Shown here piece after piece: positions 49,682 through 57,143 of a stretch of 64,000 nt of DNA. Within the stretch, counting starts at the first letter, position 1. Each line of letters begins with the position of its first letter. The stretch is taken from IMG/VR virus record IMGVR_UViG_3300025413_001239, one strand, 5' to 3'. The translations under genes and the position numbers were made by a program. The notes below the pieces were generated by a model. The model saw only the letters and a list, made by a program, of their open reading frames with translations, did no database searches and had not been told where the DNA came from. Origin of the DNA: a virus. Lineage: Duplodnaviria > Caudoviricetes.

Positions 49682-50272
49682 ATGTTAGCAATAGTAGAAT
49701 ACATAAAGAAAAATGGTTTAGATAATGCTATCGAAACTTTTAATTTAAAGGCTAAATTATACGAAAATAAGGTTCACATTAAATATGACCAAATAGGTTC
49801 GGATATGTCTCTTAAGGAGGTTCAAGAATGTCGTGGACTTATCCTAGATAGAAATACATTTGATGTAATCTCAATGTCCTTTTTCAAGTTCTTTAATAAC
49901 GGTGAAACTAATGCTGCTAAGATAGACTGGGATACAGCTCATGTATTTGAAAAAGTTGATGGTTGCCTTGATGAAAATACGTTGATAACGACTAATGAAG
50001 GTGTTAAAACGATTAAGGAAATTTGTGAAGAAAAACTTAATTGTAAAGTCTTGTCATATTGGGTTAATAGTAATGAGATTATCTTTGATGATATAATTGG
50101 ATGGTCAATTAAGGATAATATTAATGATTGGTATGAAATTAAATTGGATGACGAAACTTCAATTAAACTGACTGGTAATCATAAGGTTTGGTTACCAAAG
50201 CTAAATTGTTATAGACAAGTTTCAGATTTAACGGAAGCGGATGAATTCTTATTAAGTACTAAAAAAAATTAA
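49682..50272 (+). CDS. T4 Rnl1-like RNA ligase N-extein plus split intein N-half
   Basis: ECRGLI, FFKFFN, EKVDG|CLDENTLI (block A), LTGNHKVW (block B). Confidence 0.85.
   Translation: MLAIVEYIKKNGLDNAIETFNLKAKLYENKVHIKYDQIGSDMSLKEVQECRGLILDRNTFDVISMSFFKFFNNGETNAAKIDWDTAHVFEKVDGCLDENTLITTNEGVKTIKEICEEKLNCKVLSYWVNSNEIIFDDIIGWSIKDNINDWYEIKLDDETSIKLTGNHKVWLPKLNCYRQVSDLTEADEFLLSTKKN
49964..50272 (+). mobile_element. Split intein IntN (102 aa)
   Basis: Starts at Cys after KVDG; blocks A and B present; ends at stop. Confidence 0.85.
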
Positions 50273-50658
50273 ATTCTGGCAGCAATGTTTCAAATTTAGA
50301 AAAACGAATTGGTTATACTTTAGATAATTTAAATATTAAATTTGAAACTCAATATTTAATTAATAGGTTTTCTTATGATTATTATATCAATGATATAAAT
50401 TTATTAATAGAGGTTAATGGTGATTTTTGGCGTGCTAACCCAATAAAATATTTACCTGATGATATATTACCATTTCCGAAAAGTATTGAAATTAAAGCCA
50501 AAGATTTATGGTTAAAGGATAAACGAAAGAATGAATTAGCGATTAAAAATGGTTTTAATATAGTTACAATTTGGGAAATGGAGATTAATAATTTAAATAG
50601 TGTTGAACTTGAAATATTTTTGTTAAATAAATTAAATAACTTTATAAATGGAGACTAA
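50263..50658 (+). pseudogene. Start-less Vsr/DUF559-like endonuclease remnant
   Basis: Open frame SNLEKRI..FSYDYYI..LLIEVNGDFWRANP..KD..KNELA..GFNIVTIWE; no start codon; H of the usual FWH is R. Confidence 0.75.
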
Positions 50659-51610
50659 CGTAGTTAAAATAAAATCAATTAAAAAAATTGATTCTAATTC
50701 GAAAAGATATGACATACAAACAAAATTAACTAATAACTTTTTCGCTAATAATATTCTAGTTCATAACTCGATGATGCAAGTTTATTGGGACCCTTACGCT
50801 AATAAGTGGTTTGCTGGAACTACAGGTACTGCCGAAGGTGAGGGTGAAGTAAACAATAAGTCTGGGACAACGTTTAATGATTTGTTTTGGCAAGTTGTAA
50901 ACGACAAAGCTCCAAATATGCTTAGGTGGTTAAATAAGTTAAAGCATTGCACGTTTGTGTTTGAATTAACAACACCTTATAACATTGTGGTTAAGCCGCA
51001 TGGTGAATCTAGTATTACACTTTTAGCTGCAAGAGATAATCAAACACTTAAAGAGTTAAGGTATATTGATTTAAAGGTATTAGCAACAACTTTTGGTGTG
51101 CCAATAGTTAAATTATTCGACTTAAAAGCTAAGAACTTTGGTGACTTGATTAGAACATTTGAAGGAATGCCATGGTCTGAAGAAGGTTATGTCGTAATGG
51201 ATGAAAACTTCAATCGTGTTAAAGTTAAGAACCCAGCATACTGCGCTGTACATTTACTAAAAGGTAAATCAGCTGAACATAACATTTTAACAATCGTTAA
51301 GTCTAACGAAATTGAAGAATTCGCATCAACTTTCCCAGAAAGAAAAGAAGAATTATTTAAGCTTAAGGCCAACTACGATTTGTTGAATGCAAAGTTAAAT
51401 TCAGTGTGGGATGAACTAATACCAAGAAAGCCTAAAAACATAACAGCTAATGAAAAGAAGTTGTTTGCGGCTGCTGTATTTGAAGTTTGTAAGAAGCATA
51501 AGGTTGATAATTTCACTGGGTTATTCTTCCAATTGGAAGCTGGTAAAATAGAATCAGTTGATGAGTATTTGATGGAATATGACAATAAAAAGTTGTACCA
51601 TATACTTTAA
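50648..51610 (+). CDS. Split intein C-half (40 aa) plus RNA ligase C-extein
   Basis: YDIQT..NNFFANNILVHN|S; FVFEL, EEGYVV, RVKVK ligase motifs. Confidence 0.85.
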   Translation: METNVVKIKSIKKIDSNSKRYDIQTKLTNNFFANNILVHNSMMQVYWDPYANKWFAGTTGTAEGEGEVNNKSGTTFNDLFWQVVNDKAPNMLRWLNKLKHCTFVFELTTPYNIVVKPHGESSITLLAARDNQTLKELRYIDLKVLATTFGVPIVKLFDLKAKNFGDLIRTFEGMPWSEEGYVVMDENFNRVKVKNPAYCAVHLLKGKSAEHNILTIVKSNEIEEFASTFPERKEELFKLKANYDLLNAKLNSVWDELIPRKPKNITANEKKLFAAAVFEVCKKHKVDNFTGLFFQLEAGKIESVDEYLMEYDNKKLYHIL

Positions 51611-51670
51611 AAAATAAATTTGGTGGAATGAAAGTTCCACCTTATTTTTGCACTCTAAATAAAATAAACA

Positions 51671-52402
51671 ATGACAATTAAGCAAATTTTCGATGAAATC
51701 GCAAGCGAATCATCTACGAACAAAAAAGTTGAAATCCTTAACAAGTATAAAGACAATGACTTATTAAAGAGGGTTCTGTATTTGGCTAATTCACCTCGTA
51801 TTAAGTTTTATATCAAGCAAATTCCAGAGTATGAATCTGGTCCATTTAATCAAGACTTATCAGTTGGTTTGGATAGCTTGAGTCCATTATCCTTAAGGCA
51901 ATTAACTGGACATGCTGCCATAAATCACTTAGCTGCAACTCTTGAGTTTTGTAGCGAAGATGATGCTTATATCATCGAGCGTATCATCGAAAAGGATTGC
52001 AAAATTAATTTGGGTACTTCACTTATTAATAAAGTATTTCCTAAACTAATTGAAGAAACACCTTACATGGGTGCTAAGGCTTTTGATGAGAAATTAGCTA
52101 AGGCTATATTTAAAGATGGTTCAGCTTTAAGCCAAGTTAAGATGGATGGTCGTTATTGCAATGCTGTAATAGCGAATAATTCAGTTGATATGGAAAGCCG
52201 CCAAGGTGAACCAACGCTATTAGGTGATGCGTATTTTATAAGCGAATTAAATCAGCTTAAGGATTGCGTTTTAAACGGTGAGTTGACAATGAAGTGTATT
52301 GAATCTAAATTTACTTTTAATAAAGACGATTTAATCGAAATTGACGGTATTAAATATACCACCAAAGAAATAAAAAATAAATTTTTACCATTAATTGAAT
52401 AA
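51671..52402 (+). CDS. ATP-dependent DNA ligase, N-terminal fragment
   Basis: KMDGRY (motif I), SRQG, LNGEL (motif III) then a non-ligase tail. Confidence 0.85.
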   Translation: MTIKQIFDEIASESSTNKKVEILNKYKDNDLLKRVLYLANSPRIKFYIKQIPEYESGPFNQDLSVGLDSLSPLSLRQLTGHAAINHLAATLEFCSEDDAYIIERIIEKDCKINLGTSLINKVFPKLIEETPYMGAKAFDEKLAKAIFKDGSALSQVKMDGRYCNAVIANNSVDMESRQGEPTLLGDAYFISELNQLKDCVLNGELTMKCIESKFTFNKDDLIEIDGIKYTTKEIKNKFLPLIE

Positions 52403-52440
52403 AATGAAAGTTCAACATATTTATAAATAAATATAAATTT

Positions 52441-53337
52441 ATGTATGTAACTTATTTAATTATTTATAATGGTGATAAATTACCACCATTATATATTGGG
52501 TCAACTAGTTTAGAAAAAATAGAGAATGGGTATCGAGGGTCAATCTCATCGAAGAAATATAAAAATATTTTTAAAGAAGAGTTAAAAAGTAATTTTAACC
52601 TATTCGATGTTATCATTCTATCAAAACATGAAACTAGAATTGAAGCATTGGAAATGGAATTAGATTTACAAAAAAAGTTTGATGTGGTAAAATCAAATAA
52701 ATTTATGAATCAATCCTTAGCATCAGTTAATGGCATGTTTGGTATGGATGTAAATGGTAAAAATAACCCAATGTTTGGTAAGAAACATTCAGACAAAACA
52801 AGAAATGTACTAAAGGAAAAACGTGGAAATAATAAACGATATGAATTAACCGATAAACATAAAGAAATTATTAGTAAAACACACGCTAATAAAGTTATTT
52901 CTGAAAACACAAAAAAATTAATTTCAGATAAATTAAAGGGTAAATACATAGGTAAAGATAATCCTATGTTTGGTAAAAAACATAGTGAAGAGACTAAAAT
53001 TAAAATATCTAAAAGTAACAGTGGTAAAATTAGAACAGATGAATTCAAACAAAGAACATCCGAATTAAATAAGGGTAAAATTATTTCTGAAGATACCAAG
53101 ATAAAAATATCTAGGGCTAAAATCGGAAAAAAACGTACTTCTTTTAGTAAAGAGTGGCGAGAAAATATATCTAAAGCTAATAAAGGTAGAATTCTTAGTG
53201 AAGAAACTCGAAAAAAACTGAGTAAACCAAGAGAATCAACAAAATCGGTATGCCCATATTGTGGGTTTATTGGTGGTGGCGGTAATATGAAACGCTATCA
53301 TTTTGAGAATTGTAAAATAAATAAAAATAAGGTATGA
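52441..53337 (+). CDS. GIY-YIG (Seg-like) homing endonuclease with NUMOD3 repeats
   Basis: VTYLI..LYIGST; NPMFGKKHS repeats; CPYC..NMKRYHFENCK. Confidence 0.85.
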   Translation: MYVTYLIIYNGDKLPPLYIGSTSLEKIENGYRGSISSKKYKNIFKEELKSNFNLFDVIILSKHETRIEALEMELDLQKKFDVVKSNKFMNQSLASVNGMFGMDVNGKNNPMFGKKHSDKTRNVLKEKRGNNKRYELTDKHKEIISKTHANKVISENTKKLISDKLKGKYIGKDNPMFGKKHSEETKIKISKSNSGKIRTDEFKQRTSELNKGKIISEDTKIKISRAKIGKKRTSFSKEWRENISKANKGRILSEETRKKLSKPRESTKSVCPYCGFIGGGGNMKRYHFENCKINKNKV

Positions 53338-54164
53338 ACATTAATTCTAATGAAATAAAAAAAATAATAGTTAATAACGATGGTAGTCTTGAAATATTGA
53401 CAATGAAGGGTATATCTCGTTACGAGAGCAACGGCATCATAGCATCTCTTATTTCAATTAGAAAGAAAGAATTAGATGGTAAGGATGTACGCAAGGAAAT
53501 ACTTGAGTTTGAAAAAGAACACATGGTTTATCAAACAGCGTTGGATTCAATTATTTTCACTGCTTGGGATATGATAACACTTGAAGAATATACTGCCGCT
53601 AAATCAGTTAGACAATATCGTGAAAGATACGCTGAATTGGTTGCGCTATTAAACGCTAATAATTTTACCAATCTTTCAGTTGTTGAAACAAAAGAGGTTA
53701 AGACTTATGAAGAAGCTATTGAACACTTTCAAGAGGTTTTAGCTAGAGGTGAAGAAGGTACAATACTTAAATCATCTAAGGGTGCTTGGAAAGACGGTAA
53801 ACCTAACCATCAAATTAAGCTAAAAAAAGAAATTAATCTTGATTTAAAAATTGTAGGTTTTAATTACGGAACGGGTAAAAATAAAGACGTTATATCATCC
53901 ATTGATGTTGAGAGTTCAGATGGTTTACTTAAAACGAGCCCGACAGGAATTAATGAATCTATGATGAAATTTATCACAGAAAATCAGGATAAACTTTTGA
54001 ACACTATTATTGAGGTAAAGTGTTCTGGGTTGTCAAAGGATTCAGATGGTAATTATTCTTTGTTACACCCAGTATTCAAATCTTTACGTACTGATGAAAA
54101 GAGTATTGCTGATTCATTAGATGAGTGTATTAAAATAGATAAAGCTGCTATGGGGTTATCTTAA
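53334..54164 (+). CDS. ATP-dependent DNA ligase, C-terminal fragment
   Basis: SRYESNG, FTAWD, EEGTILK (IV), KLKK (V), SLLHPVF..R.DEK (VI). Confidence 0.85.
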   Translation: MNINSNEIKKIIVNNDGSLEILTMKGISRYESNGIIASLISIRKKELDGKDVRKEILEFEKEHMVYQTALDSIIFTAWDMITLEEYTAAKSVRQYRERYAELVALLNANNFTNLSVVETKEVKTYEEAIEHFQEVLARGEEGTILKSSKGAWKDGKPNHQIKLKKEINLDLKIVGFNYGTGKNKDVISSIDVESSDGLLKTSPTGINESMMKFITENQDKLLNTIIEVKCSGLSKDSDGNYSLLHPVFKSLRTDEKSIADSLDECIKIDKAAMGLS

Positions 54165-54342
54165 CGGCGTACCAACCAATATACATTTTATTAGCAATTA
54201 ATACTTCTTTTTTAATTGTATTTCCTTGGTATATTGGTTTACCATTATTGTAATAAGATTTTCTTAATGCCTTCGTTGGTAAACCATTTGTTTTACATAT
54301 TGTTTCAAAATTACCGTTACACATGAACATAAGTAAGTTTAT

Positions 54343-54759
54343 TTGTTAAAAAAACAATGGGTGAAGAATAATCATCAAGGTGTAAATGAATATCGTAAAA
54401 ATTACTATTTAAATAATAAAGAAAAAATACTAACAAAAAATAAAGAATGGAATAAAAAAAATGCGCATATTGTATCTTGGCGCACCATTTTGAAATCGCA
54501 ACTTAGGAGAATGGGTAATAGTAAAGAAGGAAAAACAATTGATTTATTAGGGTATTCAGCGTTAGAACTGAAAAACCATATCGAATCCTTATTTACTGAA
54601 GGTATGACTTGGGATAATCATGGTGAATGGCATATTGACCATAAAATACCCGTAACTAAATTTGAAAAAAATGTTCCTCCACATATTGTAAATGCGTTAA
54701 ATAATTTACAACCATTATGGGCGAACGAAAACAGAAGTAAATATAATAAAATTTTATAA
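54343..54759 (+). CDS. HNH-type endonuclease (WHIDH family), probably 5'-truncated
   Basis: MTWDNHGEWHIDHKIP..NLQPLWANENRSK. Confidence 0.7.
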   Translation: MLKKQWVKNNHQGVNEYRKNYYLNNKEKILTKNKEWNKKNAHIVSWRTILKSQLRRMGNSKEGKTIDLLGYSALELKNHIESLFTEGMTWDNHGEWHIDHKIPVTKFEKNVPPHIVNALNNLQPLWANENRSKYNKIL

Positions 54760-54775
54760 ATTAAAAATAATTGAA

Positions 54776-55609
54776 ATGACAAGTAAACGACATATCGGGT
54801 TTCCATCTATTGACCAGTTTAAGACAGTTGTCTCCAACATCAATAGAAGACACAATTTTGTTGGTTTGGATGCCAACGGTGATGCAATTTATGACCCATC
54901 AAAACCTAAGCCAAAGCTTAAGTTTAAGGGTACGGTAAAACTACATGGTACCAACTTCGGTGTATGTTATAATGACATCGCTGGATTATGGGCACAATCT
55001 AGGGAAAATATAATCACCTCCCAAAAAGATAATGCTGGCTCCGCTTTTTTTGTTGAGTCCAATACAGAAGCTTTCTTGGATTTATTTAACCAAGTAAAGA
55101 ATAAGTTAAATTTGGATTTGACTCAAAACACAATTTCAATTTATGGTGAGTGGGCTGGTAAGGGTATTCAAAAGTCTGTTGCGATTTCCAATTTGGATAA
55201 GTCTATGTTTATTTTTGGTGTTAAGATTACACCTCATCCAAAGGATGAAGATGATAAGACACCAGCTTATTGGGTTGATTCGTCATACCTAAGGAACCAT
55301 GAGCATAGGATTTACAATATTGAGGATTATGAGACTTATGAGATTGAAATCGATTTCAATTATCCTCAATTGGCTCAGAATAAGCTAATTGAAATGACTA
55401 TTGCTGTTGAGGATGAATGTCCTGTTGGTAAAGCCTTTGGTCATGTTGCGTTAACAGACAATACAGCATATGAAGAAAATGGTAAAATTTGGTTTGAACG
55501 AGAAAATAGTTTTACAGATATATTAAAAAATCAATTAATTGATGAATTTAGAATACTTCGTAATAAATATCCGATAGGTATAAATAAAATATTTTTTACT
55601 ATTCTATAG
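54776..55609 (+). CDS. Rnl2-like RNA ligase, N-terminal fragment
   Basis: VKLHGTN (motif I), QSR, IYGEWAG (III), FIFGV; ends after ECPVGKAFG with an unrelated tail. Confidence 0.8.
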   Translation: MTSKRHIGFPSIDQFKTVVSNINRRHNFVGLDANGDAIYDPSKPKPKLKFKGTVKLHGTNFGVCYNDIAGLWAQSRENIITSQKDNAGSAFFVESNTEAFLDLFNQVKNKLNLDLTQNTISIYGEWAGKGIQKSVAISNLDKSMFIFGVKITPHPKDEDDKTPAYWVDSSYLRNHEHRIYNIEDYETYEIEIDFNYPQLAQNKLIEMTIAVEDECPVGKAFGHVALTDNTAYEENGKIWFERENSFTDILKNQLIDEFRILRNKYPIGINKIFFTIL

Positions 55610-55652
55610 TCTTTTATACAATACCCAGATATTTATAAATAAAGATAAATAT

Positions 55653-56648
55653 ATGGAAAAAAAATTTGTTGTGTATCGAACAATTTATTCTGGTGATAGA
55701 TTACCGAAATATTACATTGGTTCAACTAGTTTAGAAAAGATAAAATCTGGTTATTATGGTAGTGTCAGAAGTAAAAAATATAAAGATATTTTCTATTCTG
55801 AATTAAAACTACATCCTAATTTATTTAGTATTGAGATTTTGTCATACCATGATTCTAGGAATGATGCACTTTCAGAAGAATTATTACAACAAATTAAACA
55901 CAATGTTGTTGAGTCGGACGAATACTTTAATGAAAGTTTTGCTAGTATAAATGGTTATTTTGGTAGACATGTCAAAGGCATTAGCCATCCAAAATTTGGT
56001 TTATCAAATTACAAAATTTGGATTAATAAATATGGTTTAGATATTGCTAATGAAAAATTAAAAGTTTATTTAACGAAACAAAGTATATCTAACGGCGGTA
56101 AGAATAATCCAATGTTTGGTAGAAATAAAGAAGTTGTTGCAATTGATGTAAATAGCGGTCTGAAGGTTCGTGTAAATAAAGTCGAGTTTGATAATCGAAT
56201 TGATTTATCTGGTCATACACTTGGATATGTTACGGTTATTGATAAATCAACTGGTGAAAAAATAACGATTAATAAATCTAATTATAACTTAGAAAAACAT
56301 TTACATCATAACACAAATAGAAAACATAATGATACAGTTAAAGCTAAACTCTCAAAAATTAGAAAGGGTTTAATAACCGCTAAAGATTGGGATGGTAATT
56401 ATTATCGGGTGAGTAAAGATGACCCTAGATTTGAATCAGGTGAATTATCAAATATTTTTAGTAAACGTTGGATAGTTGTTGATAATTTTGGTAAGAAATA
56501 TAATGTTATGAATATTAAAAAATTTATGAAAAGTAAAAATATTCATTTTAATGAAAAAATTATAATTAACTCTGATGGTAGTGTAACAAATCATAATGTT
56601 AAAAAATATAATTCATTAAATGGTTGGAATTTAAAATGTTTAGATTAA
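55653..56648 (+). CDS. GIY-YIG (Seg-like) homing endonuclease, paralog of 52441
   Basis: VVYRTIYSGDRLPKYYIGSTSLEKI..GY.GS..SKKYK. Confidence 0.85.
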   Translation: MEKKFVVYRTIYSGDRLPKYYIGSTSLEKIKSGYYGSVRSKKYKDIFYSELKLHPNLFSIEILSYHDSRNDALSEELLQQIKHNVVESDEYFNESFASINGYFGRHVKGISHPKFGLSNYKIWINKYGLDIANEKLKVYLTKQSISNGGKNNPMFGRNKEVVAIDVNSGLKVRVNKVEFDNRIDLSGHTLGYVTVIDKSTGEKITINKSNYNLEKHLHHNTNRKHNDTVKAKLSKIRKGLITAKDWDGNYYRVSKDDPRFESGELSNIFSKRWIVVDNFGKKYNVMNIKKFMKSKNIHFNEKIIINSDGSVTNHNVKKYNSLNGWNLKCLD

Positions 56649-56660
56649 AAATAAAATAAA

Positions 56661-57143
56661 ATGTATAAAATTAAATTAATTAGTGGTGGTTCGTCTGAAC
56701 ATCAAGAAGAAATTAACAAGGTTATTGATTTGGATATAAATACAATCGGTGAGGGTATTGTTTTCTCTTATTATGCTGAGGATGGTGAGGTTTATCGGTT
56801 CAAATCTAAGGGAACTAAACACTCAAAGGCTTCTAAAGTTACAACACTTAAGCCAGTTGATGATGCTAAAATCAATAACATTATTGAAACTGTTAATAAG
56901 GTTTGTGTTTCTTGGAGACTTGAGCAAATGCTTGACAAGACCTTTGACCTTATGAATGGTGGTACCATTGACATCAAAAGGCTTGGTGATTTTATTAGAA
57001 ATGTTATCGCCGATATTCTTAAAGAAGAATTGGAAACAATAGCTGAGGCTGGCCTTGAACCTAAAGACATTAATGCTAAGGTTTCTGAGAGATGTCGAAA
57101 TTACTTTTTTCAAAAACAAAATGAAGAAGTTGGGCTTGTTTAA
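56661..57143 (+). CDS. Rnl2-like RNA ligase, C-terminal fragment
   Basis: IGEGIV (motif IV), FKSKG.KH (motif V), DILKEE. Confidence 0.8.
   Translation: MYKIKLISGGSSEHQEEINKVIDLDINTIGEGIVFSYYAEDGEVYRFKSKGTKHSKASKVTTLKPVDDAKINNIIETVNKVCVSWRLEQMLDKTFDLMNGGTIDIKRLGDFIRNVIADILKEELETIAEAGLEPKDINAKVSERCRNYFFQKQNEEVGLV

Follow-up and report, generated by a model that had tools for sequence, protein, structure and literature searches.

How can a phage that carries a selfish endonuclease gene in the middle of its DNA ligase gene still have a working ligase? The question is raised by IMG/VR virus record IMGVR_UViG_3300025413_001239, of which a stretch of 64,000 nucleotides (nt), here called the window, was analyzed. 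In it the DNA ligase of a giant lake phage (~340 kb) is encoded as two separate proteins, an N-fragment and a C-fragment, and the endonuclease gene stands between them. Introns and inteins are the textbook means by which such genes spare the gene that they invade. Here an unspliced, two-chain ligase is highly likely. With somewhat less assurance we favor an active enzyme that forms by non-covalent assembly, in which two short extensions derived from the inserted cassette, a tail on the N-fragment and a head on the C-fragment, probably aid assembly or stabilize the cut ends.

The two halves of the ligase

The two fragments are the halves of an ATP-dependent DNA ligase of the T4 gp30 type (PF04675/PF01068, PHROG 114). 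Motif I (KMDGR, Lys157) and motif III (NGELT, Glu204) are on the N-fragment and are both invariant in an alignment of 20 split N-fragments. The C-fragment carries motifs IIIa, IV (EGTILK) and V (QIKLK) and the OB domain with motif VI; its EG..K and K.K columns are invariant, and it matches PF01068 at an expectation value (E) of 1.6e-7. The sequence-only reading of this DNA had placed motifs I and III on one chain and IV to VI on the other, which is how they fall, with IIIa also on the second chain. In profile searches the N-fragment was aligned to residues 21-220 of the T4 ligase chain 6dt1 (E 7e-32) and the C-fragment to residues 295-497 (E 8e-28), while on PHROG 114 the two covered adjoining positions (89-302 and 300-519). 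The AlphaFold2 model of the N-fragment was superposed on 6dt1_A with a Z score of 20 (model residues 1-206), and its N-terminal helical DNA-binding domain on 5wfy with a Z score of 19.8 and a root-mean-square deviation of 1.6 over 128 residues.

The break point lies between motifs III and IIIa, inside the nucleotidyltransferase domain. The nearest named relative, the ligase of Cellulophaga phage phi17:2 (~50% identity), is uninterrupted; this enzyme and T4 gp30 (PDB 6dt1) are of the same family and domain order as the split ligase but are single polypeptides without tail or head. The closest metagenomic relatives (72-79% identity) are also intact and read GELTMKGISRYESNG straight across the break point. 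Because these relatives are continuous here, the 35 amino acids (aa) that follow GELTMK in the N-fragment (the tail) and the 21 that open the C-fragment (the head) are extra. The head is followed by a second copy of LTMK. Both additions had been noticed in the earlier reading, the head as about 20 residues, and both counts agree with the open reading frames (ORFs).

The three genes lie on the same strand and are tightly packed (Table 1). As the earlier reading had stated, only 38 nt are non-coding, namely the spacer between the N-fragment stop and the endonuclease start; downstream, the endonuclease stop and the C-fragment start overlap as ATGA. No terminator-like site was found in the 38-nt spacer or between the three genes. 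A terminator-like hairpin (8 pairs, then a T-run) is located just upstream of the N-fragment start, at 51622-51641. A hairpin upstream only, with none between the genes, fits a single transcript for N-fragment, endonuclease and C-fragment. The identical arrangement was assembled independently on 16 contigs from several samples (longest 343 kb), and for this reason the split is not an assembly artefact. Megablast against named phages gave no match.

The inserted gene was characterized by its domains. NUMOD3 repeats were found with PF07460 (E 4.2e-19), and GIY-YIG (PF01541) with E 0.002 and 18.9 bits, under the 22.6-bit cut-off. The motif ..YLIIY..(10)..LYIGST.. is visible in the protein and conserved among its orthologues, and matches were also obtained to PHROG 10820 and PHROG 314. 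The GIY-YIG/NUMOD3 protein is a putative active endonuclease.

Tail and head families, mobility and selection

The earlier reading took the locus as a unique case. This did not hold up: the cassette at this locus is mobile and widespread. With the N-fragment as query, dozens of proteins 240-250 aa long (50-64% identity) were recovered that end in a homologous tail. After dereplication at least 45 distinct tails remained, with the motif E.I.IDG..Y...EI..KF (fuller consensus across 45, x(I/V)EKK.x.K.GE.I.IDG..Y(S/T)..E(I/F)..KF), and 13 homologous heads had the common motif M.KS..IK.I..N.DGS(I/V/L). At 14 distinct loci, from differing samples and gene neighborhoods, the N-fragment with tail, the NUMOD3 endonuclease gene and the head with C-fragment follow in this order. 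Tail and head were always found together and were absent from all 50 intact ligases examined.

In AlphaFold2 monomer models the tail was predicted as a beta hairpin plus helix (residues 221-238; predicted local distance difference test, pLDDT, 76-82) and the head as a beta hairpin (strands at residues 8-13 and 19-23). The tail falls outside every structural alignment to solved ligases, and no family or solved structure significantly matched tail or head. Weak recurrent matches of both to the small beta-barrel families KOW, LSM and MscS beta-domain are a hint only. The tail profile, searched against 1.84 billion representative proteins, recovered its own family, repetitive giants and two marginal small proteins (P0167 and P0168, E ~1e-3), and thus gave no evidence for the tail serving other host genes. 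A tail-like motif, ..DDTINFDGK.YTG.EFYE.Y, was seen at the start or end of three small unrelated proteins (P0165, P0168 and P0167; E 6e-5 to 9e-4 for the same 1.84 billion proteins); these may be tails of other split genes, or chance.

Four other likenesses were considered. Tail and head may have arisen by duplication and divergence of ligase sequence next to the break, as suggested by MAFFT and by some residues that align by eye; profile-profile comparison with hhalign was negative (E 0.3, aligned elsewhere). An origin as an intein remnant had no profile support. Language-model look-alikes of the tail scored at most 0.85 and reflect ligase context only. A head-like stretch in a paralogous endonuclease (56538-56585, E 0.06) fits the zinc-ribbon-like C-terminus of the first endonuclease better and was treated as chance.

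A maximum-likelihood tree was built from 60 ligase cores using a quick search, with tail and head excluded. The 10 split rows are scattered among intact ligases, the sister rows of the window ligase being intact, and the well-supported branches require at least eight gains or losses. At one site of the ligase gene there is thus a presence/absence polymorphism of the endonuclease, with split and intact forms interleaved. Given this scatter and the recurrence of the arrangement, tail, endonuclease gene and head act together as a single mobile cassette. Endonuclease orthologues (48-80% identical to that of the window) occupy the same ligase site in other phages, and their divergence (49-68% identity) is as deep as that of the ligases, with a moderate correlation (r = 0.49). 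By sliding identity the ligase alleles are mosaics of one another; no clear donor tract or co-conversion signal was found near the junction. The pattern is that of an old homing element with repeated gain and loss.

In two lineages, with several independent contigs each (L002/L003 and L004/L005/L068/L069), the endonuclease gene is frameshifted, and the ligase fragments, tail and head are all still open despite this. The ligase fragments thus seem to persist independently of the integrity of the endonuclease gene. In a close relative of L002 (L015:1395-2680) the endonuclease gene is lost, leaving a 594-nt gap with one small Cys-rich ORF, and tail and head are kept. The ligase neighborhood of a 366-kb relative (L006:1-4400) holds TnpB-like (Cas12f1-like_TNB) and TnsA-like/DUF7487 genes and a LAGLIDADG-like ORF; this region is a general landing zone for mobile nucleases.

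Ratios of nonsynonymous to synonymous substitution (dN/dS) in the ligase core were 0.10-0.16 and alike for split-split, split-intact and intact-intact pairs, these values being rough, with dS near saturation. The tail gave 0.30 (window vs L002) and the head 0.45 (window vs L015), and between the tails of L002 and L015 only synonymous changes were found (dN 0, dS 0.23). Split ligase cores are accordingly under the same purifying selection as intact ones, and tail and head are also under selection, conserved as protein families. Strong purifying selection on both fragments in many lineages lends support to the two-chain ligase first proposed from the letters of this DNA, and the proposal that the new extensions matter has gained in strength.

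A direct repeat, TTGACAATGAAG(T/G)GTAT, stands exactly at the two break points with 16 of 17 nt identical; it had been reported in the earlier reading as a 17-nt duplication at these positions. It was found nowhere else in the window, and none of 100 dinucleotide-preserving shuffles matched. About half of the loci have repeats of the target sequence on both sides of the cassette, being 12+4 nt long in the window, 16 nt and exact in L079, and shorter in L022, L006 and L015; none was found in L023, L028, L085, L092 and L093. The repeats differ between lineages, but where they exist both copies encode the residues (MK, MD or ID) found in the intact ligases closest to that lineage. Such allele-matched repeats are not expected from ordinary homing, as simple double-strand-break repair from a donor gives at most one recipient-like copy. 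Recombination between the repeat copies would restore an intact ligase gene.

Proposed mechanism and alternatives

In the proposed mechanism, a mobile cassette, in which segments coding for tail and head enclose a free-standing GIY-YIG/NUMOD3 gene, would have been inserted just after motif III. The 38-nt spacer, the ATGA overlap and the lack of a terminator indicate that the three frames are probably on one transcript. The N-fragment would bring the DNA-binding domain, the adenylated lysine and motif III, and the C-fragment motifs IIIa to VI, and the two would rebuild a single active site non-covalently, without RNA or protein splicing. Tail (35 aa) and head (21 aa) would belong to the mobile element and not to the ligase; kept by selection, they most likely help the halves to assemble or stabilize the cut ends, as do the mobE-derived tails of NrdA-a/NrdA-b in phage Aeh1. 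Through homing and recombination the cassette may spread or be lost among ligase alleles. The analysis shows the layout of the locus, its recurrence, selection on all its parts and the lack of intron and intein features; that the genes are co-transcribed, that the chains assemble into an active enzyme, what tail and head do for it and that the endonuclease is active we infer.

Taken by itself, the claim that the extensions aid assembly is evenly balanced. A more tentative suggestion, a little less probable, is that tail (three strands and a helix) and head (two strands) may be the halves of a small split domain that clamps both ligase chains.

Several points weigh against the favored interpretation. 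The predicted head hairpin is of moderate confidence only (pLDDT 56-72). No charge complementarity was found between tail (6 Lys vs 7 Asp/Glu) and head (through LTMK, 3 Lys vs 3 Asp/Glu; both read from sequence), unlike the tails of Aeh1. At the sole locus without the endonuclease gene, L015, the C-fragment is frameshifted, with a deletion of ~19 codons, and may be a decaying ligase or an assembly error; this locus was consequently dropped as proof that the split outlives loss of the endonuclease gene. With the NAD-dependent ligase of the host available, the phage could depend less on its own enzyme. Assembly and activity of the two chains are themselves inferred.

The best-surviving alternative keeps an active two-chain ligase but joins the halves via the native domain interface, the extensions being kept otherwise, for surface capping, expression, or translational coupling of the endonuclease and C-fragment genes. 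Tail and head do evolve faster (24-56% identity vs 46-68% for the ligase core), and in most loci the head overlaps the 3' end of the endonuclease gene. We nevertheless consider this explanation unlikely, given the protein-level conservation, the defined motif, the synonymous-only change between close relatives, and the strict co-occurrence of tail and head outside intact ligases.

Alternatively, the split ligase might be inactive and decaying, with the phage using a host ligase or another phage ligase elsewhere in its genome. The broken C-fragment of L015 would agree with this. Inactive fragments combined with a second intact ligase elsewhere had been named in the sequence-only reading as a result that would refute a two-chain enzyme; no second DNA ligase was found within the 64-kb window, the area searched, and ~280 kb of the genome lies outside it. 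Among five complete relatives (299-482 kb), PF01068 ligases number one per genome in all but one, and an NAD-dependent ligase was found in none; in four partial records of other split-ligase phages (11-17% complete) only the two fragments were found. Decay is improbable: these relatives mostly have a single ligase, at least 14 divergent lineages keep both fragments open over their full length with the catalytic residues invariant, and core dN/dS values equal those of intact ligases.

Trans-splicing of the ligase halves by an atypical or degenerate split intein formed of tail and head was also considered. The window tail begins with Cys, tail and head loosely resemble the hairpins of intein blocks A and F, a true split intein is present in the neighboring RNA ligase gene, and the same idea was raised for Aeh1 by Crona et al. 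(PMC3045599). Across the family, however, tails open with different residues (C, P, S, D, G, N, E or T), and the heads end in ..LTMK or ..LTMD followed by Gly, without His-Asn plus a nucleophile. Among 33 tails and 9 heads there was no HINT/intein Pfam match at E up to 10; as a positive control, the neighboring 41-aa C-intein (50648-50770) scored 1.4e-7 in the same search. Tail and head total ~56 residues, and the smallest inteins have ~130. With no intein features and ~56 residues the ligase halves cannot be ligated, and a split intein of this kind is very improbable.

Least probable of all is removal of the insert from the mRNA as a group I intron with the endonuclease gene inside it. Phage GIY-YIG genes often reside in such introns, and the repeat copies differ as group I splice sites would (T ending the upstream copy, G the downstream one). 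Against this, Rfam gave no intron family (RF00028 and relatives) at E up to 10 on either strand of 51000-55000, the insert is almost wholly coding in conserved frames (except 38-60 nt across loci), L002 and L015 show no conservation of the stretch that separates tail from head, and splicing would put Cys for a conserved Gly at the T/G site or, with the exact 16-nt repeat of L079, Phe for Val or Ile. What decides against an intron is that tail and head are conserved as protein. The earlier reading was right that neither an intron nor an intein is present, but its argument that 38 nt leave no room for an intron is too weak alone, as intron cores can overlap open frames.

Neighboring split genes, precedents and meaning

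Three consecutive ligase-type genes of the window are all in pieces. About 600 nt downstream of the DNA ligase, a second nucleotidyltransferase, a PF09414 RNA ligase (54776-57143), is split likewise by a paralogous GIY-YIG gene. This RNA ligase is intact in the relatives L093 and L015, and its extensions have no sequence relationship to the tail and head of the DNA ligase. Upstream (49682-51610), an Rnl2-like RNA ligase is cut at motif I (EKVDG/C, with the break before C) by a genuine split intein. A further free-standing nuclease gene of this hotspot, an endonuclease VII/HNH-like ORF of 138 aa (54343-54759; PHROG 1035, 1e-15), stands between the DNA ligase and the PF09414 RNA ligase.

Table 1. 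Coordinates of the split DNA ligase locus and of the split genes on either side of it (positions in the window; strand as reported).
Feature	Position	Strand	Description
Ligase N-fragment, whole ORF	51671-52402	+	243 aa; ends GELTMK plus the 35-aa tail
Ligase N-fragment core	51671-52294	+	Helical DNA-binding domain and first third of nucleotidyltransferase domain; motifs I and III
Upstream direct-repeat copy, 17 nt	52283-52299	+	Codes LTMK and first bases of tail
Tail	52295-52402	+	35 codons and stop, in-frame fusion to N-fragment; not in intact ligases
AT-rich spacer, 38 nt	52403-52440	+	From N-fragment stop to endonuclease start
Free-standing GIY-YIG/NUMOD3 homing endonuclease gene (putative)	52441-53337	+	298 aa
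Ligase C-fragment, whole ORF	53334-54164	+	276 aa; 21 extra residues ahead of LTMKGISRYESNG
Head	53334-53396	+	21 codons, in-frame fusion to C-fragment; start overlaps endonuclease stop
Downstream direct-repeat copy, 17 nt	53397-53413	+	Codes LTMK and G-I of ligase
Ligase C-fragment core	53409-54164	+	Remainder of nucleotidyltransferase domain (motifs IIIa, IV, V) and OB domain (motif VI)
N-intein ORF of Rnl2-like RNA ligase	49682-50272		Followed by a 375-nt gap
C-intein ORF of Rnl2-like RNA ligase	50648-51610		C-intein ends ..ILVHN, then S
RNA ligase (PF09414) N-part	54776-55609		54-aa tail after ECPVGKAFG
Paralogous GIY-YIG gene	55653-56648		55% identical to first endonuclease over catalytic domain
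RNA ligase (PF09414) C-part	56661-57143		~27 extra residues ahead of IGEGIVF

The closest precedent is the class Ia ribonucleotide reductase of phage Aeh1, encoded as NrdA-a / mobE / NrdA-b (Friedrich et al. 2007; Crona et al. 2011, PMC3045599). There, as here, an essential enzyme of DNA metabolism is cut inside its active-site domain by a free-standing homing endonuclease gene that overlaps the downstream fragment gene; the first fragment has a C-terminal and the second an N-terminal tail, both absent from uninterrupted homologues, and there is no splicing. The tails from the mobE insertion were shown to be essential for the split Aeh1 NrdA, and similar tails were predicted elsewhere (Crona et al. 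2011, PMC3045599). The present case differs in its host gene, a DNA ligase, and in its endonuclease, which is GIY-YIG/NUMOD3 whereas that of Aeh1 is HNH. The ligase tails form conserved families that move together with the endonuclease gene and occur across dozens of divergent phages, while those of Aeh1 are unique to one phage; tail and head of the ligase are not oppositely charged, as the Aeh1 tails are; short direct target repeats flank the cassette in about half of the loci; and for the ligase, function is predicted.

Dassa et al. 2009 (PMC2677866) described fractured genes that combine split inteins with a free-standing endonuclease gene, among them a DNA ligase locus from Lake Gatun. They share with the split ligase the order of host N-part, free-standing endonuclease gene (GIY-YIG in some) and host C-part, and they too involve phage replication and repair genes in aquatic metagenomes. 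The upstream Rnl2-like RNA ligase is a true example of this type in the same window. The DNA ligase differs from it in having no intein: it lacks the nucleophile as well as blocks B and G, and its extensions amount to ~56 residues.

In T4 topoisomerase II (gp39/gp60, split by mobA) and the split gene 43 of Aeromonas phage 25 the pieces are likewise tied to free-standing endonuclease genes (review PMC2988022), and tail-like extensions have been noted for gp39/gp60 (PMC3045599). Those host genes differ, and no conserved mobile family of tails and heads has been described there. The split genes given in a review of T4 mobile elements are nrdA, gene 39/60 and gene 43, and ligase is not among them (PMC2988022). 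A phrase search of the literature for DNA ligases described as split or fragmented gave no report of one without an intein. With its cut between motifs III and IIIa, this is, we believe, the first two-chain ATP-dependent DNA ligase that has no intein. The class of mechanism is known from one case; new are the enzyme that is split, the extension peptides, which are conserved and co-mobile, and the allele-matched repeats on either side of the cassette.

Beside introns and inteins, a third means of sparing an invaded gene, namely extra peptides that let unjoined halves work, has so far rested on the single studied case of Aeh1 NrdA. The ligase cassette provides comparative evidence for the prediction of the Aeh1 authors that this means is general but hard to find. 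Here the extension peptides are conserved, under selection, and mobile from allele to allele with the endonuclease gene, outlasting its decay. The split ligase offers a test bed for the tolerance of active-site breaks in nucleotidyltransferases and a possible source of small natural heterodimerizing tags, and the paralogous RNA ligase cassette, with its different extensions, permits comparison of the strategy within one genome. If tail and head do form a clamp, the 12-16-nt target repeats, allele-matched at both ends, would mark entry of the cassette into a new allele or its precise exit from one. The endonuclease gene would then carry its own remedy at the protein level, a non-covalent counterpart of an intein that is heritable with the cassette, and the clamp would be a portable staple for split proteins.

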